Assembly: GCA_964423085.1 (NCBI GenBank)
Contig: CAYRDB010000002.1
Coordinates: forward strand, 1 to 38,659
Reading direction: 5' to 3'
From: an uncultured archaeon
Lineage (GTDB): Archaea > Aenigmatarchaeota > Aenigmatarchaeia > CG10238-14 > SCSR01
Length of the DNA stretch: 38,659 nt
The translations under genes were made by a program, and so were the position numbers. The notes under the pieces are model-generated. The model did no database searches. It saw only the letters and a list, made by a program, of their open reading frames with translations, and had not been told where the DNA came from. Below are positions 442 through 35,790 of the stretch, piece after piece (position 1 is the first letter of the stretch; each line of letters starts with the position of its first letter).

Positions 442-783
442 ATGGATAAGATATACACAGATGGTTCGGGAGACGGAAGGATAGCTTGGTACAACGAGAC
501 CACTGGCGAGAGCTGGTCCGGAAGGGAGGATGTGTCCAGCAACAACGAGGCGGAGTACCTGGCGGTAATACGCGCGTTAGAATCGGTAAAATCCGAGGAT
601 GTGAAAATAGTTTCAGATTCGAAGCTGGTTGTGAACCAGATGAAAAGGGAGTGGCACATCAAGGAGGACAACCTGAGGAAGCTGTTCGACGAAGCGCAGA
701 AAGTAATAAAGGACAGGAAGCTGAATGCGGAGTTCGAGTGGACGCCCAGGGAGAATAATCCGGCTGGCAAGTATCTCGGCTAG
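442..783 (+). CDS. rnhA: RNase H type 1 (RNase HI)-like, very short (113 aa)
   Basis: Motifs are in RNase HI order: IYTDGS (Asp), NNEAEY (Glu), VSDSKLVV (Asp), then C-terminal TPRENNPAG. The stop overlaps the convergent iscU stop in a shared CTAG. Confidence 0.7.
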   Translation: MDKIYTDGSGDGRIAWYNETTGESWSGREDVSSNNEAEYLAVIRALESVKSEDVKIVSDSKLVVNQMKREWHIKEDNLRKLFDEAQKVIKDRKLNAEFEWTPRENNPAGKYLG

Positions 784-1269: not shown

Positions 1270-1296
1270 TATTATATAACAGCGTTATAATTTAAA
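1270..1296 (-). promoter_or_regulatory. TATA-like box plus palindromic operator candidate (TATAAC-AGC-GTTATA) upstream of iscU
   Basis: Positions 1275-1290 read TATAACAGCGTTATAA, 9 nt from the iscU ATG. The block is 25/27 identical to 14035-14061 upstream of the cysteine desulfurase. In gene direction it reads TTTAAATTATAA, then the palindrome, then the ATG. Confidence 0.5.
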
Positions 1297-1346: not shown

Positions 1347-1778
1347 ATGGAAGAGCATGAGAAAACACTTTACAGAGTTTTCACGTTTTCTGGCAAGAAA
1401 ATAGAACTTCCTTCCGAAAACAAGAACAAGACTTTCGAAAAGGTCAATGAAGAGTCTTTGAAAGACCTGGCGGACGAGTTCAAAGTGCTTGTCCAAATAT
1501 ACAAATTCAACATGACAGAGACGCCTGCTAATTTTACAAGACTGGCAAATTACTTTAACGGCATGCTTACTGAGACTCATGTGATGGGATTGCTGGCTAC
1601 TTTGGAAGATTTTGGGATCATTAATGCAGAATACGGCGATGTTGGAAAAGGACGGTCCGGCAGACGATATTTTCTTTCAAATGAAAAATTGGAGGAAGTC
1701 AGAGACATTTATGAGAAACACGTCAAGCCTAAAGAAACTCCTAAAGAACGGATAAGTTATGTTCCAGGAATTTTGTAA
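1347..1778 (+). CDS. hypothetical protein with winged-helix-like segment, divergent from iscU
   Basis: 143-aa ATG ORF. THVMGLLATLEDFGIINAEYGDVGKGRSGRRYFLS looks like a recognition helix plus beta-wing. It has no Cys. It shares the 81-nt intergenic region with iscU. Confidence 0.45.
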   Translation: MEEHEKTLYRVFTFSGKKIELPSENKNKTFEKVNEESLKDLADEFKVLVQIYKFNMTETPANFTRLANYFNGMLTETHVMGLLATLEDFGIINAEYGDVGKGRSGRRYFLSNEKLEEVRDIYEKHVKPKETPKERISYVPGIL

Positions 1779-3725: not shown

Positions 3726-4394
3726 ATGTCTGAAGAGTTTTTAATCCCGCGGGAGAAATATCTTGCGTCGGGCATACACATAGGGATGAAGCAGAGGACG
3801 AAGCAGATGGCTCCGTTCGTGTACAAGGTAAGATCTGACGGTTTGGCTGTCATGAATCTCCAGGTTATAGACGAAAGAATCAGGGAGGCTGCGAAATTCC
3901 TGGCGGGAGCGAAGAACATACTCGTGGTAAGCAGAAAGAGCGTGTCCACAAAAGCAATAGAAAAGTTCTCAGACATGATAGTCGCTAAGAACATGAAAGG
4001 AAGATTCATGCCAGGAATGCTCACAAACCCTTCATACGAGGACTTTTATGAAGCTGACGTAGTTTTTGTCATAGACCCAGCAGCAGACTATCAGGTGCTT
4101 ACCGAAGCTGTCAACGCGCGAGTGCCTGTTATTGCAGTTTGCGACACTCTGAACGAAACTAAAAATGTAGACTTTATCATACCGGCGAACAACAAGGGCG
4201 CCAGGTCGCTCAATCTGCTCTTCTGGCTTCTGACAAGGGAAGTGCTAAAGGCCAGGGGCGAGATAAAGGGAGACGACGAATTCAAGCCGTCTCTAGAAGA
4301 CTTTGAAGACGAGTCTGACGTAAGGGAAGGAAGGGAAGCTCCTGCAAGAACCAGAAGGCCTTCCGGAAGGTCTAGGTCCGCGCCACGCCAATAA
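3726..4394 (+). CDS. rps2: 30S ribosomal protein uS2
   Basis: LASGIHIGMKQRTKQMAPFVYKVRSDGLAVMNLQ plus the DPAADYQVLTEA...PVIAVCDT core. It has an Arg/Ser-rich C-terminal tail. Confidence 0.9.
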   Translation: MSEEFLIPREKYLASGIHIGMKQRTKQMAPFVYKVRSDGLAVMNLQVIDERIREAAKFLAGAKNILVVSRKSVSTKAIEKFSDMIVAKNMKGRFMPGMLTNPSYEDFYEADVVFVIDPAADYQVLTEAVNARVPVIAVCDTLNETKNVDFIIPANNKGARSLNLLFWLLTREVLKARGEIKGDDEFKPSLEDFEDESDVREGREAPARTRRPSGRSRSAPRQ

Positions 4395-4566: not shown

Positions 4567-6648
4567 ATGACTTCGGTTCTTCAGGTAAAAAAGCGAGACG
4601 GCAGGATAGTAGATTTTGAAAAGGAAAAGGTAGCTCTAGCGATATGGAAGGCTGCCGAATCTGTCGGCGGCAAGGACAAGTCCAAATCCGAAGAGCTGGC
4701 GAACAAGGTCGCAGAGCAGGTCGAGAAAGAGTTCAGCGGCAAGATTCCCAGCGTGGAAGATGTGCAGAACATAATAGAAAAGATACTTATCAACGAGGGC
4801 CATGCGACTGTAGCAAAAGCGTACATACTATACAGACAGAAGAGAGTGGAAGCCAGGAAGATGAAGGCTGTTCTGGGAGTGACCGACGAGGTTAAGATGA
4901 GCCTTAACGCGCTGAAGGTCATGGCCAGCAGGTATCTTATCAGAGATGAGAACAGGAAGATAGTCGAAAGCACTTCTCAGTTGTTCAGAAGAGTAGCCAT
5001 GGCTATAGCCGAACCTGAGAAGAGCTACAGCGGGGATGAGAAAGCGAAAGAATACGAAGACCTTTTTTATGACATGATGGTAAAGGGAGAGTTCCTTCCA
5101 AACAGCCCCACTCTCATGAACGCCGGAACCGAGCTGAGCCAGCTGTCCGCGTGCTTCGTTCTCCCTATACCGGACTCGATACCCGGAATATTCGACTCTG
5201 TGAAGAACACCGCAATAATACACAAGAGTGGAGGGGGGACCGGATTTTCTTTTTCGAACATAAGGCCTAAAGGAGATGTGGTAAAGAGCACAGGAGGCGT
5301 GGCTTCAGGCCCGCTGTCTTTCATGAACGTTTTCAACGCGGCTACAGACGTGATAAAGCAGGGCGGCAAGAGAAGGGGCGCGAACATGGGCATACTGCGC
5401 GTCGACCATCCGGACATACTAGAATTTATAACAGCTAAGGAGAAGGAGGGCACGCTGAGCAACTTTAACTTCTCGATAGCAACAACAGACAGTTTCATGC
5501 GCGCTGTGGAAAGCAATTCCGAATACGACCTGATAAATCCTAGGAGCAAGAAACCTATAAAGAAGCTCCCAGCCAGGGCGGTATTCAACCTGATGGTGAT
5601 GATGGCGTGGAAAAACGGCGAGCCCGGAGTGGTGTTCATAGACAGGATAAACGCATACAATCCAACTCCGGCAATAGGCGAGATAGAGTCCACGAACCCG
5701 TGCGGTGAGCAGCCTCTGCTTCCATACGAGTCATGCAACCTGGGCTCGATAAACCTTGAAAAGATGATGTCGAACAGCCACTTTGACTGGGAAAAACTGA
5801 GAAGGACAGTCCACCTTTCCGTCAGGTTCCTCGATAATGTGGTCGACCAGAACAAGTATCCGATCAAGGAGATAGACGATATGACAAAAGCCAACAGGAA
5901 AATAGGGCTTGGCGTGATGGGCTTCGCGGACATGCTGATAAAGATGAAGATACCTTACAACTCCGAGGCTGCCATAAAGATTGCCGAGGAGATAATGAAG
6001 TTTATACAGGAAGAATCTAAGAAGGCGTCTGTGCAGCTTGGAAAAGAGAGGGGTCCGTTCCCCAACTTTGAAAAGAGCGTTCTGAAAGGAAAATACGAGA
6101 CAATAAGGAATGCCACCACTACGACCATAGCGCCTACCGGAACCATAAGCGTGATAGCAAACTGCTCCTCGGGAATAGAACCGATATTCGCAGTGTCTTA
6201 TGTAAGGGACGTGAGCGACAGCCTGGGGCACGAGCTCGTGGAGATAAATCCGACATTCGAAACAGCCATGATAGAAAGAGGCATGTACACGGACGAGCTG
6301 ATAACAAAGATTTCGCAGAACGGCGGCATACAGAGCATAGAGGAAATACCGAAGGATATAAGGGATGTTTTTGTCACAGCCATGGACATAGCTCCAGAAT
6401 GGCACATTAGGATACAGGCTGCGTTCCAGAAATACACTGACAACGCGGTGTCCAAGACCATAAACTTCCCGACGTTCGCGACTCCGTACGACGTGGAAAA
6501 GGCTTTCATGCTTTCCTGGAAGATGGGGTGCAAAGGAGTGACAGTGTACAGGTACGGCAGCAGGCAGAAGCAGATATTGAACATAAAGTCTGGGGAAGCC
6601 AAAGTCTCGGACGACTACACTGGCGGGTGCCCGCACTGCTCCCTATAG
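4567..6648 (+). CDS. nrdJ: ribonucleotide reductase, class II (adenosylcobalamin-dependent) with N-terminal ATP-cone
   Basis: ATP-cone start (VKKRDGRIVDFEKEKV). The active-site block TNPCGEQPLLPYESCNLGSINL is the class II form, not the class I NLCxEI form. The C-terminal tail ends GGCPHCSL. A GGAGG lies 8 nt upstream of the ATG. Confidence 0.88.
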   Translation: MTSVLQVKKRDGRIVDFEKEKVALAIWKAAESVGGKDKSKSEELANKVAEQVEKEFSGKIPSVEDVQNIIEKILINEGHATVAKAYILYRQKRVEARKMKAVLGVTDEVKMSLNALKVMASRYLIRDENRKIVESTSQLFRRVAMAIAEPEKSYSGDEKAKEYEDLFYDMMVKGEFLPNSPTLMNAGTELSQLSACFVLPIPDSIPGIFDSVKNTAIIHKSGGGTGFSFSNIRPKGDVVKSTGGVASGPLSFMNVFNAATDVIKQGGKRRGANMGILRVDHPDILEFITAKEKEGTLSNFNFSIATTDSFMRAVESNSEYDLINPRSKKPIKKLPARAVFNLMVMMAWKNGEPGVVFIDRINAYNPTPAIGEIESTNPCGEQPLLPYESCNLGSINLEKMMSNSHFDWEKLRRTVHLSVRFLDNVVDQNKYPIKEIDDMTKANRKIGLGVMGFADMLIKMKIPYNSEAAIKIAEEIMKFIQEESKKASVQLGKERGPFPNFEKSVLKGKYETIRNATTTTIAPTGTISVIANCSSGIEPIFAVSYVRDVSDSLGHELVEINPTFETAMIERGMYTDELITKISQNGGIQSIEEIPKDIRDVFVTAMDIAPEWHIRIQAAFQKYTDNAVSKTINFPTFATPYDVEKAFMLSWKMGCKGVTVYRYGSRQKQILNIKSGEAKVSDDYTGGCPHCSL

Positions 6649-9622: not shown

Positions 9623-10843
9623 TCACTTGTGCCCTGCCCAATCGGCCACGTATTTGTTTTCCAAACCGTGTATGTAGTTGTATGCTGCAAGCGCCGCCTT
9701 GCATCCTTCTCCGGCTGCGACAACTATCTGCTTGAATGGGGTGTCGGTCACATCGCCTGCCGCGAATATGCCCTGGCATGAAGTCTCGGAGTGCTTGTTG
9801 GTCTTTATCTGGCCGAGATCGTCTACGTCAACATTTCCTCCGACAAATCCGGTGTCAACATCCGAGCCTATCTCGACAAAAACGCCATCCACCTTTATTT
9901 CTTTTTCAGAGCAGGAATCGTCAGACACTATGATTGAATTCACAAAATTGTCCCCGCGTATCTCGCTTAATTTGGATTCCATTACAAGCTCTATGTTGCT
10001 TTTCGTCTTCGCTTCGTTTACCACATTCTCGAAAGCCCTGAACTCTGACCTCCTGTGTATGAGGTACACCTTTCTTGCAATCTTTGAAAGAAGCAGCGCA
10101 GCATCCAGAGCGGAATTGCCTCCTCCTACCACAGCGACGGTCTTTCCCTTGAACAATGGCGCATCGCATGTGGCGCAGTAGCTTACCCCCTTACCGCTGA
10201 ACTCGTCCTCCCCCGGCACGCCGAGGTTCCTAGGGGTCTTTCCGCTGGCTATTATAACAGTTTTGGAGTTGTATTCATGGTCGCATGTCGAGACCGTGAA
10301 TATTTTCTGGCCCCGGGTTTCGCTCTGAGAGATTTTTACAACGTTCTTCATTATTATTTCAGCGCCGAATCCCCTGGCTTGAGACTCGAATCTTTTCGCA
10401 AGGTCTGTGCCATCCACCTTCTCAAGGCCGGAATAGTTCTCTATCTCTGTTGTCCTGGCCATCTGGCCGCCTATGTCCTTTGTAATCACAAGCGTCTTCA
10501 TCTCTCTGCGTGAAGAATAGAGGGCGGCAGTGAGGCCTGCTGCAGATCCGCCTACTATGATAACATCGTAAAGAACGCCACTGGAATTGTTTGATTCAAC
10601 GGGATTATCTTGAGCTTTGTCCAGAAGCTTGTCCATCATAGGAACGTCGAATCCCACTATTATTTTTCCGTCTATGTCTATGACAGGAACTCCCATCTGG
10701 CCCGATTTCTCAATCATCTCCTGAGCAGCAAAGCTGTCATTCGAGACGTTTATGTCCTCGAACTCAAACCCCTTTGACCTTATGTAGTCCTTTGCCATAT
10801 GGCAATACGGACAGGCATCGGTTGAATAGACTTTGATTTTCAT
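9623..10843 (-). CDS. trxB: glutaredoxin-like domain fused to low-Mr thioredoxin reductase
   Basis: N-terminal Grx fold with CPYC (KVYSTDACPYCHMAKDY...GVPVIDIDGKIIVGFD). This is followed by FAD GxGxxG (IIVGGSAAGLTAAL), redox CATC (SYCATCDAPLF), NADPH GGGNSALD and HRRSEFRA (the HRRxxxR NADPH motif). Confidence 0.85.
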   Translation of the reverse strand: MKIKVYSTDACPYCHMAKDYIRSKGFEFEDINVSNDSFAAQEMIEKSGQMGVPVIDIDGKIIVGFDVPMMDKLLDKAQDNPVESNNSSGVLYDVIIVGGSAAGLTAALYSSRREMKTLVITKDIGGQMARTTEIENYSGLEKVDGTDLAKRFESQARGFGAEIIMKNVVKISQSETRGQKIFTVSTCDHEYNSKTVIIASGKTPRNLGVPGEDEFSGKGVSYCATCDAPLFKGKTVAVVGGGNSALDAALLLSKIARKVYLIHRRSEFRAFENVVNEAKTKSNIELVMESKLSEIRGDNFVNSIIVSDDSCSEKEIKVDGVFVEIGSDVDTGFVGGNVDVDDLGQIKTNKHSETSCQGIFAAGDVTDTPFKQIVVAAGEGCKAALAAYNYIHGLENKYVADWAGHK

Positions 10844-10898
10844 AAAACCAACGAAAGCTGAAGTTATAACAGATTATTGGAGGTTTTAGTATTTGTAT

Positions 10899-11270
10899 CT
10901 ATGCGAGCGGGCACCCGGAAATTTCGGACAACTTGGAAAGCTGCTGCATTCCCACAACAGTCTCGTCGCCTATCTTCCAGGTCGGTATGGACCTTATGTT
11001 TTCAGCAACGCATACAGAATTCATGCCAGAGCAGTCCACATATTCTATGTATTTGAAAGAATCTCCGAAAAGCTCCATCTGCTGCTTACACCAGCCACAC
11101 TGGCTTGAGCCATACATAACAACACCCTTTTCACTTAGACATTGGGCAAAATCGTCATATCCGCCAACAGCCGAGTGCTGACCTGTTATCTGAGGAACTA
11201 AAAAGTACATAGTTGCCACTGCTACCACTACAGCAGTTATTGCGACAATAATTTTGGTTCTTGAAATCAT
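10899..11270 (-). CDS. membrane-anchored extracytoplasmic thioredoxin-like protein (CGWC), VKOR-partner type
   Basis: N-terminal TM helix. The segment FAQCLSEKGVVMYGSSQCGWCKQQMELFGDSFKYIEYVDC...SIPTWKIGDETVVGMQQLSKLSEISGC resembles the Trx-like domain fused to bacterial VKOR homologues (MYGAxWCPHCxxQKxLFG...YVEC...YPTW). Confidence 0.7.
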   Translation of the reverse strand: MISRTKIIVAITAVVVAVATMYFLVPQITGQHSAVGGYDDFAQCLSEKGVVMYGSSQCGWCKQQMELFGDSFKYIEYVDCSGMNSVCVAENIRSIPTWKIGDETVVGMQQLSKLSEISGCPLA

Positions 11271-11316
11271 TTGACCACTTTTTTGAATGCCTGTTTGAAG
11301 TATTTATGGCTTTCTA

Positions 11317-11676
11317 TCATTCGCATGCAAGCGACCCTTGTGTGATTACGCAACTTCCGGTCAACGGATCGCAAGTCCCGAAAACGGCAAGGTTGTACAG
11401 ACTGTAAAACGAGTAAATCATGCTAGCAAAGAAAACTATCGTGAATATCCAGGACAGTACATCAAATCTCCTATAAACAAACCTGGCCAGCGTCGGATTC
11501 TTCTTCATTAGCTTTGACACTATGCCTGACTTTATCCTCTGGTCCAGTTTTGTGTCGCACGTCCTGAAGCTCATCTTCAGGAACACGCACCGGAAAGCCT
11601 CTTTTGCAGTAGACCTGTATTTGGCAGAGAAAACGCTAAGCATTCCAAACACTACAAGCGCTATTAGACATATCAT
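11317..11676 (-). CDS. 2-TM membrane protein with cysteine pairs on both faces, unknown family
   Basis: TM1 spans aa 2-17 and TM2 aa 73-100. The loop between them is strongly basic (about 15 K/R), so predicted cytoplasmic, and carries C30/C40. The external tail is TCDPLTGSCVITQGSLACE. There is no CxxC. Confidence 0.5.
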   Translation of the reverse strand: MICLIALVVFGMLSVFSAKYRSTAKEAFRCVFLKMSFRTCDTKLDQRIKSGIVSKLMKKNPTLARFVYRRFDVLSWIFTIVFFASMIYSFYSLYNLAVFGTCDPLTGSCVITQGSLACE

Positions 11677-11687
11677 GTAATCGCCGA

Positions 11688-12743
11688 TTAGCAGCTTCCG
11701 TTGCTAGTAGAGCCACCGCTGTAGCTCTCTGAAAACGAAACCGAAGCCTGTTCTTTGCTCAGCTCTTGAGAGCACACAGACGGTTCAGCAGAGAATCCGC
11801 AACAAAGAAGCGTCTTTAGTGCGTCCGCTGTCCTTCCACCGAAATCGTACTCGCTCACAATCTGCCCGTTCATGACTAGAGTTGGAGATCCAGATACCAT
11901 ATATTGGTCCTGTATTTCAAAGTCTTCCTCTGCGTAGGCTATTCCCCTCTCGCTGTCAGACATGCAAGCGTCCAAAGAGTCTGTGTCTATTTCAGCCTCT
12001 GCAAGGCACTCTTCCGAATTACCCGCTTTCATGAAGCATGAAACATAATCCCAGTATTTGTCAGACTGCTCCTCTCTTATGCATATCTGCCTGAGATTCT
12101 CTTCTGCTTCTCTTTCTCCGTGCATGGCTGTTATTTCGCCGTTTACAACATCTCCTATGTACCTTACTTTTATGTTCTCAGCCAGTTCCGGAATATTCTT
12201 CACAACTTCGTAAAGTATCCTCTGCATCTGAACACCGTACGGGCATTCTGATACTACAAAAGCGTTTATAACAGGGTCCTGAGCCTTTGGAACATCGTCG
12301 CAAGTCATAGCAGGCTGCGTTGTGGTAGTAGTAGAAGAAACCTTGTTAGAGGTGTATATCACTTGTGGCAGAAACATTTCGCCATCTCTTGTGACATATA
12401 GCGTCTGATTGTCGGAAATCCCTTCTCCAAACACGGATATTTCGAATTCGATTATTCCGCTGTCTGTCAACTCATATCCAAGCAGTTGGATGTCCATTTC
12501 GCCGTAGTATGTCTCATAATAGTCTGTTATCCATGCTACGACCTTGTTGACAGCGGCGGCATCAGAATCTTGACCAACAAGAAACAAATTGCCTGAAATG
12601 CCGAACAAATTAGGTTGTAAGAAAAGAGCCACTACAATTGCCACAGCCACAAAGGTAGAAATCATCCACGGGTTTATTTTTGGAACCCTTATCGTTATAG
12701 TCCTTGGCTTCTCTGCCTCCGAGTTTTGATTGCTTTCTGCCAT
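11688..12743 (-). CDS. membrane-anchored extracytoplasmic DsbA-like thioredoxin-fold protein with CPYG in place of CxxC
   Basis: N-terminal TM anchor, a small alpha/beta domain and a Thr-rich linker. The Trx fold follows: FVVSECPYGVQMQ ... helical insert ... VSGSPTLVMNGQIV (DsbA-like cis-Pro loop). The tail is Cys-rich. Confidence 0.55.
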   Translation of the reverse strand: MAESNQNSEAEKPRTITIRVPKINPWMISTFVAVAIVVALFLQPNLFGISGNLFLVGQDSDAAAVNKVVAWITDYYETYYGEMDIQLLGYELTDSGIIEFEISVFGEGISDNQTLYVTRDGEMFLPQVIYTSNKVSSTTTTTQPAMTCDDVPKAQDPVINAFVVSECPYGVQMQRILYEVVKNIPELAENIKVRYIGDVVNGEITAMHGEREAEENLRQICIREEQSDKYWDYVSCFMKAGNSEECLAEAEIDTDSLDACMSDSERGIAYAEEDFEIQDQYMVSGSPTLVMNGQIVSEYDFGGRTADALKTLLCCGFSAEPSVCSQELSKEQASVSFSESYSGGSTSNGSC

Positions 12744-12804: not shown

Positions 12805-14025
12805 TTATGTAAGCCTCGATATCTCCCGAACTTTGTCAACGAACAGCCTAGCCTCTTCTTCGGTGTTGTACAAGTACACAGAAGCGCGCACAGAACCCTT
12901 TATGCCGTGCGAATTGAACCACGAATGTACGCAATGGGCACCTGAACGCACCATTATGTTCGCAGTGTCATCGAGCATAAGCGCCACATCGTGAGGAAAC
13001 ATGCCTTTTATGTTGAAGGAAACTATTCCCCCGCGCATTTTAGGCTCCTGCGGGCCAACTATCGAGACCCCGTTTATTCCCAACAGCTCTTCGGTGATGA
13101 TTTCATTTAGCCTGGATTCGTGCTTGCCTATGTTTTCAAGTCCCACGCCTTCGATATATTCTGCGGCAGCTGCCATTCCAATCGATCCAGCATAGTTCTG
13201 AAGCCCCGCTTCGAACCTCTGCGGAGGCGGAAGAAGCACATAATCGTCGTATGTCGAGTCCTTGACAGTCTCTCCTCCCATTGCGTAAGGCTGCATCTTT
13301 TCCAGGATTTCCTGCTTCGCGTAAAGCGCCCCAGTGCCGCTTGGTCCGAGCATCTTGTGTCCTGAAAACGCAAGGAAATCTACATCAAGCTTCCTGACAT
13401 CCACTTTTTTGTGCGGCACGCTCTGCGCACCGTCCACAAGGACCATGGCACCGGCATCGTGAGATATCTTTGCTATTTCTTTAACAGGTAGAGTGTATCC
13501 GTCGAAATTGGACGTGTGCACCACAGAAACGAGCTTTAGGCTTCCTTTCAAAGACTTTACCTTCCTTTCGAACTCTCCGACATCGAAAGTCATGTCTTCC
13601 GCAGAGAAAACCATTTCGTGCTTCAGTCCCGCAACCTTTACCAGCCTAATCCAGGGAAGCAGATTGGAGTTGTGTTCGCGGTCGGAAGTAAGAACAACAT
13701 CGCCCGATTTCAATCCTATTGAATTGGCGACCATGTTTATCCCTTCGGTTGTGTTCTTTGTGAAAATTATCTCGCTCTCGCGCTTGGCGTTCACGAACTT
13801 TGCAATCCTCTTTCTGGCGTCATGATATTTCTCTGTGACAATGTCGCCGAGCTTGTGGGAGCTCCTGCCTGCGCACGCGGGATAGCTGTAGTAATACTCG
13901 TTCATAGCATCCACAACCTGCTTCGGCTTTAGGGACATGCACGAGTTGTCGAAATATACTATCGGTTTGTTGTTGAACTTTCTCTCGAGGACCGGAAAGT
14001 CCTTCCTTATTTTTTTCACATCCAT
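12805..14025 (-). CDS. sufS: cysteine desulfurase, group II (SufS/CsdA-like) PLP enzyme
   Basis: PLP lysine context FSGHKMLGPSGTGALY. The catalytic loop VRSGAHCVHSW is the group II RxGHHC type. Length is 406 aa. Confidence 0.88.
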   Translation of the reverse strand: MDVKKIRKDFPVLERKFNNKPIVYFDNSCMSLKPKQVVDAMNEYYYSYPACAGRSSHKLGDIVTEKYHDARKRIAKFVNAKRESEIIFTKNTTEGINMVANSIGLKSGDVVLTSDREHNSNLLPWIRLVKVAGLKHEMVFSAEDMTFDVGEFERKVKSLKGSLKLVSVVHTSNFDGYTLPVKEIAKISHDAGAMVLVDGAQSVPHKKVDVRKLDVDFLAFSGHKMLGPSGTGALYAKQEILEKMQPYAMGGETVKDSTYDDYVLLPPPQRFEAGLQNYAGSIGMAAAAEYIEGVGLENIGKHESRLNEIITEELLGINGVSIVGPQEPKMRGGIVSFNIKGMFPHDVALMLDDTANIMVRSGAHCVHSWFNSHGIKGSVRASVYLYNTEEEARLFVDKVREISRLT

Positions 14026-14034
14026 GTAATCACT

Positions 14035-14061
14035 TATTCTATAACAGCGTTATAAATTAAA
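14035..14061 (-). promoter_or_regulatory. TATA-like box plus palindromic operator candidate upstream of the cysteine desulfurase
   Basis: Positions 14040-14055 read TATAACAGCGTTATAA, 14 nt from the ATG at 14025. The block is 25/27 identical to 1270-1296. Confidence 0.5.
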
Positions 14062-14082: not shown

Positions 14083-14090
14083 CTTATAAG
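14083..14090 (+). promoter_or_regulatory. TATA-like box for the RNase P RNA gene
   Basis: CTTATAAG lies about 25 nt upstream of the inferred P1 5' end at about 14113. Confidence 0.35.
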
Positions 14091-14112: not shown

Positions 14113-14389
14113 GGCGAGCCGGCCAGGTAGCTTCGGGTTGCTCTCAAAGGCAACCTGAGGAAGTTCCATCCATCAAAGGAGCCGTGAAAGCCGAAAGGCA
14201 GAGTAGCGGCACGCTGAGAAGCATCCGGCTGTATCAGAAACGGCACTTTGCTGCCCCGTTAACAATGAGGGAAACCTAGTTGGGGTAGTGTAAGATGAAA
14301 CGGACAGCAGGTCCTGATGCGATGCAAGCTTAGGCGCTAAGACAAATGCTACCCAACACAGAAGATGGGCTATGGCTGGCACGCCGCCA
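14113..14389 (+). ncRNA. rnpB: RNase P RNA (archaeal type A-like, compact, about 277 nt)
   Basis: CR-I-like GAGGAAGUUCCAUCC at 14155-14169. Also present are GUGAAAGCCGAAAGGC, CAGAAACGG, GGUAGUGUAAGAUGAAACGG and a CR-IV/V-like ACACAGAAGAUGGGCUAU. The 5' GGCGAGCCGGCC can pair with the 3' GGCUGGCACGCC (P1). A T5 run follows at 14390-14394. Ends are approximate. Confidence 0.8.
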
Positions 14390-28353: not shown

Positions 28354-31300
28354 TCAACGAAAGGCTTCCTTTTTCTTTTCGATGAATATTTTCAAAAAAG
28401 AAAAGTTTTTGAAATATTCCGGCTCGTACGAAGTCCTTCTTACTTTTATTACAAATCCCTTCCTGTAAATCAGATATGCTATGAGAAGCACCAGGAATAT
28501 TATTAGCAGTATTATCAGGAGCGTTACTATATCTGTCTTGAACAGACTCTTTCCATATCCGTCGTCCTGCAATACCTCTATTGTCCCTGTCTTGGAGTCG
28601 GCTATGTTACCTAGTCCGGTTATCTTGAATGTATGCAAGCCTGCTGAAACGTCGCACGGCACAGATGCGTATCCGGTTATTATCTTGGTCTCTCCCCTTT
28701 TAACAGCCACGCTCTCGGGAACTTGTATCCATTCTGCAGCATCCCCGCTAACTTTAAGGTCTATCATGCTGTCCTCGCCGGTGTTCCTAACTTTGAACGT
28801 GAAGCTGGAAACCGAGCATTTCTCAAGGTCGTACTTGTCGTCAACATATATTTTAGGCAGTCCCTTGTTAAGTTCGTCCGGAAGCACGCACTTTGAGTTA
28901 TCGCATCCGTACGGGCAGTACTCTACAATCTTCCATCTTGTCTCATAGTTGTCGTCCAAATACTTCTGCTGCTTATAGTCCCCGAAGCACCTGTAGTCAG
29001 ACTGGCTTTCGGCAGATTTGTCCTTCACATAAAAGCTGCTTGAATAAGCTGTCTTCGAATAACTCGTACTGTCGCTCCAGTAGACAAGCTTTATTGCGTA
29101 TTTTCCAGAGTCTTTGACCACCTTTGAGCATGTAGAATACTTTATGCTGTCTCCTGACACATAGAGACGGTTGTAATCGCAATCCATTGACACGCAGTTG
29201 GTGTACCCGTCGGCCCTGCAAACATAAGCGTTGAAATTGAACCATCTTCCAGAATCTTCAAAGTTCTGAATCTTTATTCTGGCCGAAACCGTATCGCGCT
29301 CGTAAGAGTCCGACGGTCTAGATATAGACGCTGAGAATGACTGGCTTTGATCAGAATCGCATCTGTAGTCGTTATATATGCTAGTATACGAGCATGAACC
29401 GCCCGAACAGTAATAGTCGCGGTAGGTGGTTCCGTAGCAGCCGTCGTTGCTGTTGCAGTTCTCTACGTCAGTCCAGGACGACCATTCTGTGCAAGAGTCT
29501 GAATCGTAGTTGCCGCATGTCCTCTTCTGGACAATGCCTCCGCTGCACCTGCTTTCTTCTGCTCCAGCTGAGCATTCGTTATAGCAAGTGTCTGAAGTAC
29601 ATCTATAATCGTTGTAGCTCGAAGTGTACGAGCAAGCTCCATTAGAGCAGTAATAGTCGCGGTATGTGGTTCCGTAGCAGCCGTCGTTGCTGTTGCAGTT
29701 CTCTACGTCAGTCCAGGACGACCATTCTGTGCAAGAGTCTGAATCGTAGTTGCCGCATGTCCTCTTCTGGACAATGCCTCCGCTGCACCTGCTTTCTTCT
29801 GCTCCAGCTGAGCATTCATCGGTGCACTGTGATCCAGAAACACAAGCAGGAACTCCAGGAGTGCAATATTCATTAGATGAACACTCGTCTGCTATGCTGT
29901 AAGGTGTCCAAGCAGTCGAGCCGTCGCATGAAGACCCTGTCCCAGAGCAGTATTTTTGAAGATATCTAACTCCGACGTCACTTCCATATCCAGTACCCCA
30001 CGGACAAGAATATTGTACATCTATATCAGAATCGCATACATAGCTAGACGGCCTGTAAAGGTCGTCAGGACAGCTGGCGCTTGAACCAGTGCAGTATTCT
30101 GCCACATCGCATGGTCCGAAAGATGCCCTGCAAACTGTGCCGGAAGGCTTGAAAGTCCCTGTTGTTGTGTCGCAGCAAGCGCCCGAAGTGCACTCAGATG
30201 AAGTGCACCTAGCGTCGTTGTAGCTCGAAGTGTACGAGCAAGCTCCATTAGAGCAGTAATAGTCGCGGTATGTGGTTCCGTAGCAGCCGTCGTTGCTGTT
30301 GCAGTTCTCTACGTCAGTCCAGGACGACCATTCTGTGCAAGAGTCTGAATCGTAGTTGCCGCATGTCCTCTTCTGGACAATGCCTCCGCTGCACCTGCTT
30401 TCTTCTGCTCCAGCTGAGCATTCATCGGTGCACTGTGGAGCTGAAACGCAAGCAGGAACTCCAGGAGTGCAATACTCGCTATAAGAACAGTAGTCTGCCA
30501 CACTCCAAGAACCCCATGATGTAAGTCCGGTACAATATGGGCTGTCTCCGGAGCAGCGCCTCTCCATATATCTAACTCCGACATCATTGCCAAAAGTCGT
30601 CCCCCAAGGGCATCCATATTCCGTCTGCTCTTTTGAATTGCAAACGTATGACGAAGACTTGTACGAGTCTGCTGGACAGCTGGCGCTTGAACCAGTGCAG
30701 TATTCTGCCACATCGCAATTGCCTACAGCAGCTCTGCACATTGTTGTAGAAGACTTGAACTTGCCTGTCGCTATGTCGCAGCACACTCCTGAAGTGCACT
30801 CTGGTTGGGACACCATCTCATATACAGCCGTCTTTGAAGACGAGTCTTTTGTAACAACTCCTGAGCATCCGCTTGAGCACTCGTATGTATTTCCCCCGTA
30901 AACAACCTGGCTCTGATAGGAGTATGAAACTGTGTCTGAAAGACCTGAAACTGACAGGCTTGATGATGTGGAAGAGTGCTTTGCTCCGTCCACATACATA
31001 TACCAGTAAGCCCCGGAAGGAAGTCCCGATGTGTAAAAGTTAGAAGTGAATGTTACAGGGCTGAAATAAGCGTATATTGTACCGCTGGCCTCTGCGTAGA
31101 ACATTATCGGATTGGAGCTTGTCTCGCCTCCCTCATAACCATCAAACTTTACAAAGCTGTATCCGTCTTTCGGATATGCAAAAAGGGTGACATATTCTCC
31201 GACCGCTACTGTGGCAGTGGTGCTGCTTTCAGTGCATCTTGTATAGTAAGGCTTGTCGTACACGCAGACCTTTCCCTCGCCTCCTGCGACAACAAGATTC

Positions 31301-31680
31301 CATGTTACTTCTGGCTTCTTCTCATAAGTGGCGTAAGTTATGTAACCTACGCTATAGTCCTTGACCTCGCCTGAGCAACCGCTGACGCATTCGTATCCAT
31401 CAGGAACAGTGTATGTGTACGAAGTGCCTATCGCCAAGTCCCATGGGATGTATCCATAGTCTCCGCTTGACGAATAGTATTTAGTTGTAGAGTCGGCTTG
31501 CACACCCCAGTTAACATCTGAAGGCAGGCCTGTCTGGTAGAACCTTGAAGATACAGGTGGATATATCCAAGGAAAAAGAACTTCAGCCAGCGCTTGCTGG
31601 GATGTCATAGTCAGCGCTAAAAAGGCTATTATAGTTACTATTGAATAGTGAATAATACTTCTAGACAACACTGTTCTCAC
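28354..31680 (-). CDS. giant Cys-rich surface protein (1108 aa): signal peptide, beta-sandwich repeats, 2x disintegrin-like motif, 3x 74-aa Cys module, CARDB-like domain, C-terminal TM anchor
   Basis: GTG start. Signal-like N-terminus ends in ALA/EV. FY(Q/T)(T/S)GLPS repeats occur at aa ~47 and ~215, and an InlB-B-repeat-like segment at aa ~126-208. CCD...CR(x5)CDVAEYCTGSSASCP(A/D)D occurs at aa 294-347 and 496-549. ECSAGAEESRCSGGIVQKRTCGNYDSDSCTEWSSWTDVENC... occurs three times. The TM helix is IVTLLIILLIIFLVLLIAYLIY, followed by a basic tail. My count is about 74 Cys. Confidence 0.85.
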   Translation of the reverse strand: MRTVLSRSIIHYSIVTIIAFLALTMTSQQALAEVLFPWIYPPVSSRFYQTGLPSDVNWGVQADSTTKYYSSSGDYGYIPWDLAIGTSYTYTVPDGYECVSGCSGEVKDYSVGYITYATYEKKPEVTWNLVVAGGEGKVCVYDKPYYTRCTESSTTATVAVGEYVTLFAYPKDGYSFVKFDGYEGGETSSNPIMFYAEASGTIYAYFSPVTFTSNFYTSGLPSGAYWYMYVDGAKHSSTSSSLSVSGLSDTVSYSYQSQVVYGGNTYECSSGCSGVVTKDSSSKTAVYEMVSQPECTSGVCCDIATGKFKSSTTMCRAAVGNCDVAEYCTGSSASCPADSYKSSSYVCNSKEQTEYGCPWGTTFGNDVGVRYMERRCSGDSPYCTGLTSWGSWSVADYCSYSEYCTPGVPACVSAPQCTDECSAGAEESRCSGGIVQKRTCGNYDSDSCTEWSSWTDVENCNSNDGCYGTTYRDYYCSNGACSYTSSYNDARCTSSECTSGACCDTTTGTFKPSGTVCRASFGPCDVAEYCTGSSASCPDDLYRPSSYVCDSDIDVQYSCPWGTGYGSDVGVRYLQKYCSGTGSSCDGSTAWTPYSIADECSSNEYCTPGVPACVSGSQCTDECSAGAEESRCSGGIVQKRTCGNYDSDSCTEWSSWTDVENCNSNDGCYGTTYRDYYCSNGACSYTSSYNDYRCTSDTCYNECSAGAEESRCSGGIVQKRTCGNYDSDSCTEWSSWTDVENCNSNDGCYGTTYRDYYCSGGSCSYTSIYNDYRCDSDQSQSFSASISRPSDSYERDTVSARIKIQNFEDSGRWFNFNAYVCRADGYTNCVSMDCDYNRLYVSGDSIKYSTCSKVVKDSGKYAIKLVYWSDSTSYSKTAYSSSFYVKDKSAESQSDYRCFGDYKQQKYLDDNYETRWKIVEYCPYGCDNSKCVLPDELNKGLPKIYVDDKYDLEKCSVSSFTFKVRNTGEDSMIDLKVSGDAAEWIQVPESVAVKRGETKIITGYASVPCDVSAGLHTFKITGLGNIADSKTGTIEVLQDDGYGKSLFKTDIVTLLIILLIIFLVLLIAYLIYRKGFVIKVRRTSYEPEYFKNFSFLKIFIEKKKEAFR
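29408..29577. repeat. intragenic DNA repeat copy c (170 nt, 1 mismatch to copy b)
   Basis: Aligned by eye to 29648-29817. The single difference is at 29425 (g versus t). The offset is 240 nt, which is 80 codons. Confidence 0.85.
29609..29831. repeat. intragenic DNA repeat copy b (223 nt, identical to copy a)
   Basis: Reads identically to 30215-30437. The offset is 606 nt, which is 202 codons. Confidence 0.85.
30215..30437. repeat. intragenic DNA repeat copy a (223 nt)
   Basis: Identical to 29609-29831. The identical antisense ORF peptides in the supplied track (MWFRSSRRCCCSS...) corroborate this. Confidence 0.85.
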
Positions 31681-35042: not shown

Positions 35043-35226
35043 TCGAACACCTCAACGAAACTCTATTCTATATTTCGGAATTCTAAGAAATAAGAGGATT
35101 TGCTAGGTCCGACGAGACCGAGATATGGGATATAAACAGATTTCGAAAATGATAAAACCCTAATATTTAAGCGTTTGTGGCAAATTAAATTGTATCAAAT
35201 CTTCTAGTTGACACGGAGGTCTAAAA

Positions 35227-35790
35227 ATGGCTACAAAAGATTTTGGCATAAGGGTTGAGAACATAGTCGCATCAGCAGCGTTCGGAGTGACCATACCTCT
35301 TGAGAAGGTCGTTTCGAAGCTCGACGGCATGGAGTACGAACCCGAGCAGTTTCCAGGATTGGTGTACAGGATAAAGAATCCTAAGGCGGCCGCTTTGATA
35401 TTTGGATCCGGCAAGATAGTGTGCACTGGCGCGCACAGCTTGACAGACGTGAGGACGGTCTTCAAAAAAGTCGTCGCTGTGGTTGAAAAGTCCGGCGTGA
35501 AGGTGCCTAACGGATTCAAGATACAGGTTGAGAACATTGTAGCTTCCGCGAAGCTCGACTCGGACCTGAACTTGGACACAATAGCGTTCAACCTCGAGAA
35601 CTCGGAGTACGAACCCGAGCAGTTTCCAGGATTGGTGTACAGGATGAAGGACCCGAAAGTAGCGTTCCTGCTTTTCGGATCAGGAAAGGTTGTGTGCACC
35701 GGCGCCAGGAAGATAGAGGACGTGGCTATAGCTGTGAACAAGGTGTCGAACAAGCTCAAGAAAATCGGCGCCATGGTCAAGAAGAAATAG
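35227..35790 (+). CDS. tbp: TATA-box binding protein
   Basis: Two TBP repeats are present: IENIVASA...EYEPEQFPGLVYR.K.PK.A.L.FGSGK.VCTGA. A GGAGG lies 8 nt upstream of the ATG. Confidence 0.95.
   Translation: MATKDFGIRVENIVASAAFGVTIPLEKVVSKLDGMEYEPEQFPGLVYRIKNPKAAALIFGSGKIVCTGAHSLTDVRTVFKKVVAVVEKSGVKVPNGFKIQVENIVASAKLDSDLNLDTIAFNLENSEYEPEQFPGLVYRMKDPKVAFLLFGSGKVVCTGARKIEDVAIAVNKVSNKLKKIGAMVKKK
35331..35372. repeat. 42-nt perfect direct repeat, copy 1 (TBP repeat 1)
   Basis: ggagtacgaacccgagcagtttccaggattggtgtacaggat is identical to 35604-35645. The offset is 273 nt, which is 91 codons. Confidence 0.9.
35604..35645. repeat. 42-nt perfect direct repeat, copy 2 (TBP repeat 2)
   Basis: Identical to 35331-35372. 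Confidence 0.9.

Follow-up and report, generated by a model that had tools for sequence, protein, structure and literature searches.

The window analysed here, a stretch of 38,659 nucleotides (38.6 kb) from an uncultured member of the Aenigmatarchaeota (contig CAYRDB010000002.1), carries two minus-strand genes for Fe-S cluster biogenesis. The first (nucleotides 780–1265) specifies a 161 amino acid NifU_N/IscU-type Fe-S scaffold (Pfam PF01592, E-value=8.5e-42), its nearest NCBIfam models being NifU_clost and IscU, each matched below its cut-off. The product of the second (12805–14025), a 406 amino acid type II cysteine desulfurase of the SufS family, contains an Aminotran_5 domain (E-value=3.4e-114) and scores 445.6 bits against TIGR01979 (SufS), the cut-off of which is 475.1. 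These assignments agree with the identities originally predicted, and the two genes are referred to here as iscU and sufS. An IscU identical to that of the window is present in, among others, samples SRR29050540, SRR29050546, ERR6222550, SRR8925735, SRR10812148 and ERZ925065. Thiol-redox genes (9623–12743, minus strand) follow downstream of sufS and may share its transcript. Both have divergent neighbours on the plus strand. iscU shares an 81-bp intergenic region with orf143 (1347–1778), a 143 amino acid open reading frame which is weakly Lrs14/PadR-like (winged helix), matches nothing in Pfam or NCBIfam, and gave an unreliable single-sequence AF2 model (pLDDT 38). Divergent from sufS is the archaeal RNase P RNA gene (14114–14384; Rfam RF00373, 101 bits, E-value=2.8e-27), with a TATA-like element of its own, CTTATAAG, at approximately 14083–14090.

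The same palindrome precedes iscU and sufS. On the plus strand TATAACAGCGTTATAA occurs exactly at 1275–1290 and 14040–14055, the only two places in the window, and with flanks included (1270–1296 and 14035–14061) 25 of 27 positions are identical, as had been claimed from the first inspection of the sequence. Each copy holds the 15-base dyad TATAAC-AGC-GTTATA: copy 1, within the orf143–iscU intergenic region, at 1275–1289 (centre 1282, 17 nt 5' of the iscU ATG) and copy 2 at 14040–14054 (centre 14047, 22 nt 5' of the sufS ATG). Read in the direction of the genes, on the minus strand, the first promoter is TTTAAATTATAACGCTGTTATATAATATGAC-ATG, the A of its start codon being nucleotide 1265, and the second is TTTAATTTATAACGCTGTTATAGAATAAGTGATTAC-ATG, in which the A is nucleotide 14025; the palindrome-to-ATG gaps are 9 nt for iscU and 14 nt for sufS, the distances given at the outset. 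At both promoters the dyad begins on the last base of a TTTAA(A/T)TT TATA box, which in the gene direction is TTTAAATT for iscU (1289–1296, minus strand) and TTTAATTT for sufS (14054–14061, minus strand), the latter with a purine-rich BRE-like sequence, GCGAAAGG, upstream of it. Since the centre of the iscU TATA box lies about 27.5 nt from the ATG, the iscU mRNA is probably leaderless or nearly so; at sufS the distance is about 32.5 nt, and the geometry suggests leaderless transcription of both genes, with starts predicted on the two ATGs or no more than a few nt from them. The sufS dyad is outside the RNase P promoter, because the TATA-like element of that gene lies 22 bp beyond the sufS TATA box.

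The exact pattern TATAACNNNGTTATA is found twice in the window against 0.00 expected (100 dinucleotide-preserving shuffles), and when up to two mismatches are allowed just one further site appears, within a coding region. The dyad is absent from the approximately 45 other gene upstream regions of the window, among them the promoters of ribosomal protein S2, aIF2-alpha and RNR. An unrelated 16-mer, CTTTGAAGACGAGTCT, is likewise present twice, and the mere recurrence of a 16-mer within 38.6 kb is unremarkable; the significance of the repeat derives from its palindromy, from its standing in the same position at two genes linked in function and, most of all, from its conservation across genomes. 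The dyad was also considered as an RNA hairpin and rejected as such: the predicted energies (−3.7 and −4.3 kcal/mol, z −1.0 and −0.5) are no better than those of shuffled sequences, and an Rfam search revealed no RNA family at the dyad sites.

Conservation was examined at the orthologues of both genes. Six iscU loci of approximately 20 kb each (L011, L012, L013, L158, L159 and L160) were fetched by protein identity (65–74%); all six carry the exact dyad 5' of iscU, and in each it is the sole dyad with one mismatch or fewer in the locus. Among these loci the 3-nt spacer takes the forms GCT, ACT, ACC and GGC, and the flanking sequence is likewise divergent. In an alignment that includes three of the pattern-independent iscU orthologues, TTTAAATT abuts the dyad in all three and sequence farther upstream diverges. 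The same block of TATA box and dyad heads SufS orthologues (64–70% identical) in six loci (L022, L045, L054, L060, L072 and L076) and a 39%-identical SufS in ARMAN-5 (L067), while the block-headed proteins of two other loci (L056 and L061) open with the same N-terminus, MDVEKIRAD. Aligned sufS orthologue promoters, themselves retrieved with the pattern, mostly read GAAAG(C/G)-TTTAAATT-dyad. Thus the expectation that a genuine element would be kept before iscU and sufS in relatives was borne out, as was the expectation that it would not prove to be a general promoter of the lineage: neither in the window nor in approximately 115 kb of orthologous loci does the motif stand before unrelated genes.

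The consensus of the sites is (T)ATAAC-R-S-Y-GTTAT(A), with AAC and GTT as invariant positions. Among 50 non-redundant sites the third spacer position is a pyrimidine in every one and the first a purine in 40; the spacer is constrained, as expected of a 7-1-7 protein site. The iscU and sufS spacers within one genome are often unlike; CAYVFQ and JAPLUY, for instance, pair GCC with ACT.

The breadth of the motif was investigated by scanning 185,579 species genomes with a TATA-plus-dyad pattern, TTTAAWTTATAACNNNGTTATA. This yielded 33 archaeal and 30 bacterial loci which, being chosen by pattern, show where the motif occurs and not how often orthologues are without it. In 22 of the 33 archaeal loci the block directly heads an Fe-S, Fe or regulator gene, a functionally coherent set made up of IscU (9), SufS (9), SufB (1), an HTH gene (2) and EncFtn-SOD, a ferritin-like/SOD pair (1). 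The other 11 archaeal matches head unrelated or uncharacterised genes, such as a CNNM transporter (three Methanomethylovorans genomes) and a nadX/nadC pair (L034), and in none of the 30 bacterial loci is a homolog of IscU, SufS or orf143 found downstream of the block. Five genomes have exactly two scan matches, and these are iscU and sufS. In MAGs labelled Thermococci, Methanomicrobia and Methanobacteriota the block heads iscU-iscS operons. Dyad-headed genes in other archaea include sufB operons, the ferritin-like/SOD pair, further cysteine desulfurases, cysteine-synthase-like and ThrC-like PLP enzymes, ThiI-type enzymes, PAPS reductase and sulfite reductase, as well as a DtxR-type regulator gene and the candidate HTH regulator's own gene. 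Homologous operons without an intact dyad also exist: L163 has none and L162 only a variant, TTAACAATTGTTAA. The original prediction of a dedicated two-locus Fe-S regulon therefore describes the window, which has just two sites, and is too narrow for other archaea, in which more loci and more gene types carry the dyad.

The HTH gene belongs to an uncharacterised and unnamed family without a solved structure, here called HTH-Cys. Its members are approximately 105–135 amino acids long and possess an XRE-type HTH (..LG(I/T)TQAA(I/V)SQY..), a cysteine in an N-terminal PPCE motif and a CxxC near the C-terminus, to which C-x2-H...CxxC is added in the long forms. In an alignment of 52 sequences C5, C93 and C96 are invariant, and conservation is 90% or higher at C106, H109, C119 and C122. 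The AF2 model is confident (pLDDT 89.5, pTM 0.85). A fold search with this model against the PDB gave no match with an E-value below 1, and the sequence profile gave only generic Cro/HipB HTH matches in the same database. Screening of the candidates with Pfam and NCBIfam likewise revealed only generic HTH_3/Cro domains, with no SufR model and no Rrf2.

Members of the family were collected through the protein alone, by a scan of metagenome loci, plus a profile search. Within 125 nt 5' of the HTH start, 37 of 74 metagenome loci have a dyad with one mismatch or fewer and 50 have one with two or fewer, against a background elsewhere in the same loci of 0.011 and 0.020 sites per 125 nt, respectively. 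In about 18 of 80 loci a cysteine desulfurase gene adjoins the HTH gene or is one gene away. In L050 and L043 the dyad is immediately followed by the HTH gene, L043 having two tandem dyads and then HTH-sufC-sufB; in L016 it is part of the dyad-headed operon sufB-sufD-HTH-sufC-sufS-sufU. It is divergent from a PadR-iscS-iscU operon in L161, with an exact dyad between, and in L162 it opens the series HTH-iscS-iscU. Several HTH promoters have the dyad upstream of or over the TATA box, not downstream, so the mechanism may differ between promoters. A profile search revealed no HTH-Cys member in the 38.6-kb window or in L001–L014, of which L011–L014 are loci of the nearest relatives, and the cognate gene of this genome would presumably lie outside the window. 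From these associations the HTH-Cys family is most likely the source of the dyad-binding protein.

Four other explanations were weighed. The one that survives best accepts the operator and assigns it to another regulator, be it a cysteine-tailed PadR, a metalloregulator of the DtxR/Fur/Rrf2 type or a general chromatin or TrmB-like factor, the HTH-Cys gene then being only a member of the regulon. PadR genes with a C-terminal C..C..CxxC tail do head iscS-iscU operons in L161 and L163, and a DtxR+FeoA regulator gene stands behind the dyad in three loci (L088, L100 and L116). The PadR gene of L163 is present, however, where the dyad is not, and most dyad-bearing loci have neither a PadR nor a DtxR gene nearby. 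Only HTH-Cys shows the classic signature of an autoregulator, namely a dyad before its own gene in hundreds of divergent contigs combined with placement in suf and isc operons, and we regard another regulator as unlikely, at perhaps one chance in a handful.

Less probable still is the candidate named in the original prediction, the product of orf143, as a local Lrs14/PadR-like winged-helix protein binding a real operator. Its position is suggestive, for it is divergent from iscU with the dyad in the common intergenic region, an arrangement repeated in L012, and the profile of its family has weak matches to PDB 2d1h (E-value=5e-4) and the Lrs14-like 6cmv (E-value=0.01). The family is nevertheless tiny, with 55 representatives among 1.84 billion proteins, nine of them at an E-value of 1e-10 or better, and among all fetched loci homologs occur only in the window's own strains (L001–L010) and L012. 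The dyad is kept where the divergent open reading frame is unrelated (L013, L071) or where there is no such gene (L011/L069, L077, L055, L026), and orf143 cannot explain the same dyad in Micrarchaeota, Parvarchaeota, Bathyarchaeia-type and euryarchaeal contigs. This protein is probably not the cognate regulator, and the odds are heavily against the explanation as a whole.

It could also be argued that the block is a strong or bidirectional core promoter, in which the palindromic TTATAA...TTATAA serves TBP both ways and no dedicated regulator is involved. Both half-sites do hold TATA-like sequences (TATAA/TTATA), each locus has a divergent neighbour (orf143 at iscU, the RNase P RNA gene at sufS), and L034 presents a perfect extended palindrome between divergent genes. 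The invariant AAC/GTT and the R-S-Y spacer, however, are not features of a TATA box, and RNase P has its separate element 22 bp away. Moreover, the dyad is missing from promoters of the window such as those of ribosomal protein S2, aIF2-alpha and RNR, occurs once per 20 kb in the orthologue loci, always at iscU, and is associated with a functionally coherent set of genes, which makes this explanation very improbable. The last, a functionless repeat that arose by chance or through recent local duplication or gene conversion, could draw on the second repeated 16-mer and on the common spacer and 25 of 27 like bases of the two copies, but is effectively refuted already by cross-genome conservation, the dyad being kept at both genes where IscU and SufS are just 64–74% identical and the flanks unalignable, with iscU and sufS spacers that are frequently unlike within a genome and with no exact matches in shuffled sequence (0.00).

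We therefore return to the HTH-Cys family. The observed sequence, placement, specificity and conservation of the dyad, and its observed association with HTH-Cys genes, make it probable, though by no means certain, that the dyad is the operator of a dimeric HTH-Cys repressor with an autoregulated Fe-S/sulfur-mobilisation regulon, here and in many other archaea. As at archaeal repressor operators of leaderless-type promoters, the inverted repeat adjoins the TATA box, is specific to a coherent gene set and has half-sites conserved amid free flanks. In the proposed mechanism a dimeric transcription factor on the dyad (predicted target TATAACAGCGTTATA) would control the genes for Fe-S clusters and sulfur mobilisation. 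At iscU and sufS the dyad would fill the interval from the last base of the TATA box to the leaderless start, as the original prediction of an operator-type element between TATA and start had it. Because the dyad occupies that interval, a bound dimer would be expected to block the recruitment of RNA polymerase, and possibly of TFB too, and on this geometry a repressor is proposed. The HTH-Cys gene would be subject to autoregulation by way of its own copy of the dyad. If the parallel with IscR and SufR holds, the conserved cysteines may ligate an Fe-S cluster or undergo modification by sulfane sulfur, and repression would be lifted upon shortage of clusters or sulfur.

Several known systems invite comparison. 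IscR, an Rrf2 protein of Proteobacteria, is a dimeric repressor of Fe-S biogenesis operons which is autoregulated, is often encoded by the first gene of the operon, and monitors the supply of clusters by means of a cluster ligated through three cysteines and one histidine. HTH-Cys is similar in that its gene lies in or ahead of isc and suf operons, its operator precedes its own gene and three of its cysteines are invariant. The resemblance is one of function, not of family membership: HTH-Cys has an XRE-type HTH_3 domain whereas IscR is an Rrf2 winged helix, and no Rrf2 match was found with Pfam among the approximately 40 window ORFs scanned or among the candidate regulators. The type 1 and type 2 motifs of IscR are about 25 bp long and unrelated to ATAAC-N3-GTTAT; the 15-bp dyad, ATAAC-RSY-GTTAT, does not match them. 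The present system also belongs to another domain of life, with TATA/TFB promoter architecture, and cluster binding by HTH-Cys is putative.

The archaeal repressors MDR1, LrpA, Phr, TrmB, NrpR and SurR have operators which overlap or follow the TATA box and block TBP/TFB binding or the recruitment of RNA polymerase. Their operator geometry is the same as that seen here; none of them belongs to the HTH-Cys family. SurR, a winged-helix ArsR-like protein, recognises a GTT-N3-AAC core. A link to SurR was rejected, as the half-site order is inverted (AAC-N3-GTT here) and the protein family is different. The wider set of dyad-headed genes resembles a cysteine/sulfur-trafficking regulon, as in the case of CymR (Rrf2), and the sulfur or persulfide sensors of bacteria of the CstR/SqrR/BigR kind, of which the persulfide sensors use paired cysteines; HTH-Cys, again, belongs to another protein family than these. 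A parallel in gene order is offered by SufR of cyanobacteria and Actinobacteria, a [4Fe-4S] repressor of the suf operon and an autoregulator according to work cited in a review (PMC13066941). The HTH-sufC-sufB arrangement of L043 and the embedding of the HTH gene in the suf operon of L016 recall it, but SufR is larger, of another family and with another operator, and no similarity was detected with Pfam or NCBIfam.

The Fe-S-sensing transcription factors of that 2026 review, IscR, SufR, NsrR, SoxR, RirA and FNR, are all bacterial (PMC13066941). In the literature searched, neither a regulator nor an operator of archaeal isc, suf, MIS or SMS genes was found, and no paper on archaea came up in a text search for motifs of the AAC-N3-GTT type. 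Nor was a published description of the motif or of the HTH-Cys family found there, which is no proof of its absence from the literature at large. The pair of motif and protein was seen in contigs labelled Aenigmatarchaeota, Micrarchaeota, Parvarchaeota, Diapherotrites, Nanoarchaeota, Bathyarchaeia and Aigarchaeota. A broader and more tentative proposal, to which we give somewhat less than an even chance, is that ATAAC-R-S-Y-GTTAT and the HTH_3/PPCE/CxxC protein constitute an undescribed regulator-operator pair, widespread in Archaea, which would sense Fe-S clusters or sulfane sulfur through the three invariant cysteines and would have arisen independently of IscR, SufR and CymR.

The window offers a clean, minimal, two-promoter example of a candidate archaeal Fe-S operator, and the comparative data tie its dyad to an easily expressed protein of about 120 amino acids with a confident predicted fold. 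A long-open question, how archaea match the supply of Fe-S clusters to demand, is thereby made testable, also for genome-reduced DPANN which cannot be cultured alone. For annotators the dyad provides a DNA motif with which to predict members of an Fe-S/sulfur regulon in uncultured archaea, and approximately 1,800 proteins now named merely "transcriptional regulator" or "hypothetical" are flagged. If the broader proposal is true, the pair would control Fe-S assembly (ISC/MIS-like and SUF/SMS-like), cysteine desulfurases, sulfur assimilation and tRNA thiolation, and the protein would serve archaea as the functional counterpart of IscR, SufR and CymR.

The sequence bears out the original prediction that the 16-mer TATAACAGCGTTATAA stands at both 1275–1290 and 14040–14055, within 27-nt blocks identical at 25 of 27 positions, and that the palindrome lies 9 and 14 nt, respectively, from the ATG of a minus-strand gene. 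Read in gene direction, both copies give TTTAA(A/T)TT-ATAAC-GCT-GTTATA. The genes concerned are iscU (780–1265), specifying a NifU_N/IscU-type scaffold (PF01592, E 8.5e-42), and sufS (12805–14025), a SufS-family cysteine desulfurase (TIGR01979, 445.6 bits). The window (47% G+C) contains exactly two instances of the pattern TATAACNNNGTTATA, versus 0.00 expected from shuffles; allowing up to two mismatches adds one intragenic site, and the dyad is absent from all of the roughly 45 other gene upstream regions, as had been noted for the promoters then inspected. Since a second, unrelated 16-mer is likewise repeated in the window, repetition by itself is not significant, and the case for the dyad therefore lies in its palindromy, placement and conservation.

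Longer repeats were also seen. The 1108-amino acid ORF at 28354–31680 (minus strand), which looks like a repeat-domain surface protein, has long near-identical internal DNA repeats, including a ~157-nt repeat present three times (about 29408–29565, 29648–29805 and 30254–30411) and a ~600-nt repeated unit, with longer repeats around 29609–30100 and 30215–30705. An exact 42-nt direct repeat (35331–35372 and 35604–35645) lies within a minus-strand ORF (35160–35780) showing no Pfam match.

The presence of an archaeal RNase P RNA gene (14114–14384, plus strand; RF00373, 101 bits) and of aIF2-alpha identifies the window as archaeal. Ten contigs of biogas and digester metagenomes specify an IscU identical to that of the window; the next-closest proteins show 65–76% identity, the named ones being from DPANN archaea labelled Aenigmatarchaeota or Diapherotrites. 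These relatives share the window's gene order (RNase H-like gene, iscU, aIF2-alpha, PAC2, S2, RNR and further). The RNase H/RVT_3-like gene (442–783, plus strand) converges on iscU, overlapping its 3' end by 4 nt, an arrangement retained in loci L001–L014, L158 and L159. The RNR of the CAYNTH relative (L159, 3327–6665, minus strand) contains an intein with a LAGLIDADG endonuclease domain, which is lacking from that of the window (4567–6648).

Six orthologous iscU loci (L011, L012, L013, L158, L159 and L160) were picked by protein identity alone, and all six possess an exact TATAAC-N3-GTTATA directly upstream of iscU. Their spacers vary (GCT, ACT, ACC, GGC), the flanks cannot be aligned, and in each ~20 kb locus this is the sole dyad with one mismatch or fewer. 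The two outcomes named beforehand as contrary to the original prediction, occurrence before many unrelated genes and lack of conservation in relatives, were thus not encountered at these loci.

A scan of 185,579 species, one genome each, with TTTAAWTTATAACNNNGTTATA returned 63 stretches (30 bacterial, 33 archaeal), a pattern-selected set that is informative on where the motif lies and not on how often it is absent. Downstream of the block in the 30 bacterial stretches there is no homologue of IscU, SufS or orf143. In 22 of the 33 archaeal stretches the block directly heads Fe-S, iron or HTH genes: IscU (9), SufS (9), SufB (1), a small HTH gene (2) and an EncFtn-like ferritin (1), the last followed by a superoxide dismutase-like gene, so named from its N-terminal sequence. 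The other eleven precede unrelated or uncharacterised genes. Five Aenigmatarchaeota-type genomes have exactly two matches each, at iscU and sufS; in a sixth, CAYNTH, the block lies at sufS and at the ferritin–dismutase pair, and the iscU site has a variant TATA box. In ARMAN-5 the block also precedes sufS-sufU, and in a Micrarchaeaceae MAG it stands before a complete suf operon; MAGs labelled Thermococci, Methanomicrobia and Methanobacteriota have it ahead of iscU-iscS operons. A CNNM/DUF21 transporter gene follows the block in three Methanomethylovorans MAGs (L020, L036 and L049), and in L034 (3934–3962; uncultured archaeon), where the block takes the form of a perfect, extended palindrome, it separates two divergent genes, one nadX-like with a Rossmann-fold N-terminus and the other nadC-like.

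In front of both iscU and sufS, the final base of the TATA box is also the first of the dyad, which ends 9–14 nt before the ATG. The TATA centre lies ~27.5 nt (iscU) and ~32.5 nt (sufS) from the ATG, from which, by standard archaeal promoter geometry, we infer leaderless or very short-leader mRNAs. A dimer bound to the dyad would block recruitment of RNA polymerase, and possibly of TFB, as archaeal repressors usually do. The 88 bp between sufS and the divergently transcribed RNase P RNA gene accommodate two promoters back to back, their TATA-like boxes lying 22 bp from each other; because the RNA gene has its own box, the putative operator is private to sufS. Immediately behind sufS, and in its orientation, follows a run of thiol-redox genes (9623–12743) specifying a 351-amino acid GILT/DsbA-like protein, a 119-residue ORF without match, a 123-residue glutaredoxin-like protein and a glutaredoxin–thioredoxin reductase fusion (TIGR01292, 343 bits). 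These genes may be transcribed with sufS as one longer unit or may form a functional neighbourhood; in L161–L163, similar genes (TrxR, Grx and DsbA) lie beside iscS-iscU.

The regulator originally put forward, orf143 (1347–1778, plus strand, divergent from iscU), matched no Pfam or NCBIfam model. Its family has 55 representatives among 1.84 billion proteins, with a profile weakly resembling Lrs14/PadR-type winged-helix proteins, and it may be a local DNA-binding protein. Among the fetched loci its homologues are limited to the window's own strains and L012, the corresponding slot in other dyad-keeping genomes being vacant or occupied by unrelated ORFs. As it is not conserved alongside the dyad, orf143 was judged an unlikely conserved partner of the operator.

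A second candidate is specified directly behind the dyad in L050 and L043: a protein of ~108–119 amino acids, here termed HTH-Cys, whose XRE-type HTH (PF01381) is accompanied by an N-terminal (P)CE cysteine and a C-terminal CxxC. In L043, a Micrarchaeota MAG, tandem dyads (TATAACCGTGTTATA and TATAACTCAGTTATA; 4122–4154), their starts 18 bp apart, precede HTH-sufC-sufB, which suggests cooperative binding by two dimers. In L016 the homologue lies within the dyad-headed operon sufB-sufD-HTH-sufC-sufS-sufU. A metagenome scan with the HTH protein alignment gave over 473 relatives; 80 loci were retained, 74 of them usable for dyad counts. In the 125 nt preceding the HTH start, 37 of 74 have a dyad with at most one mismatch (background 0.011 sites per 125 nt, the rate elsewhere in the same loci) and 50 of 74 with at most two (background 0.020), its centre usually 11–37 nt before the start codon. 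At several HTH promoters the dyad overlaps the TATA box or BRE side instead, which is likewise compatible with repression. A cysteine desulfurase gene adjoins the HTH gene or is one gene off in ~18 of the 80 loci, layouts including divergent IscS–HTH, IscS-IscU-HTH and HTH-SufC.

Loci of more distant IscU homologues (L161–L163) confirmed the HTH–dyad association independently. In L161 an exact dyad separates a divergent HTH gene from a PadR-iscS-iscU-DUF1858-ThiI-TrxR-Grx operon; in L162 (Diapherotrites) the HTH gene heads HTH-iscS-iscU with a palindrome variant; L163, with a PadR-iscS-iscU operon, has no dyad. The leading PadR-family genes (L161, 4515–4838; L163, 4498–4833; both plus strand), from two Aenigmatarchaeota MAGs, share a cysteine-rich C-terminal tail, FC..F.GIF...VC.RCR, and could represent a second, independent type of Fe-S-responsive regulator.

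A profile search identified 1,809 HTH-Cys members (E<=1e-5), including ones in MAGs labelled Aenigmarchaeota, Nanoarchaeota, Bathyarchaeia and Aigarchaeota, under no names but "transcriptional regulator", "HTH domain-containing" and "hypothetical". No curated NCBIfam model matched, the sequence profile hit only generic Cro/HipB HTH domains, and a PDB fold search with the all-helical AF2 model (pLDDT 89.5, pTM 0.85) gave nothing better than E=1.3. The literature searched, coverage of which was incomplete, gave no prior description of the dyad or the family. In an alignment of 52 sequences C5, C93 and C96 are invariant, and in the long forms C106, H109, C119 and C122 are conserved at >=90%. The three invariant cysteines and the placement in Fe-S operons suggest sensing of cluster occupancy, as in IscR; given the sulfur-metabolism targets, a persulfide or thiol switch is also in play. 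By profile search the gene is absent from the window and from the fetched loci of its nearest relatives. The predicted operator is most probably served by such an uncharacterised, cysteine-bearing XRE-type regulator.

From 50 non-redundant sites the consensus is (T)ATAAC-R-S-Y-GTTAT(A), its core positions having served as selection criterion and its spacer statistics being unbiased. A pyrimidine occupies spacer position 3 in 50/50 sites and a purine position 1 in 40/50, which in effect makes the site a 7-1-7 dyad. Other dyads on HTH-bearing contigs head further cysteine desulfurases, ThrC-like and CysK-like PLP enzymes, ThiI and PP-loop enzymes, PAPS reductase, sulfite reductase, a DtxR+FeoA regulator and a radical-SAM protein, which makes Fe-S assembly together with sulfur mobilisation/assimilation the best description of the predicted regulon. 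The proposal of a two-locus Fe-S regulon operator is supported as to Fe-S control and extended, the set of targets being broader elsewhere. The likeness to IscR and SufR is one of function, the control of Fe-S genes, and the system belongs to neither family. The dyad is a conserved predicted operator of an archaeal Fe-S/sulfur regulon, of which the two-gene set in this reduced DPANN genome represents a minimal form.
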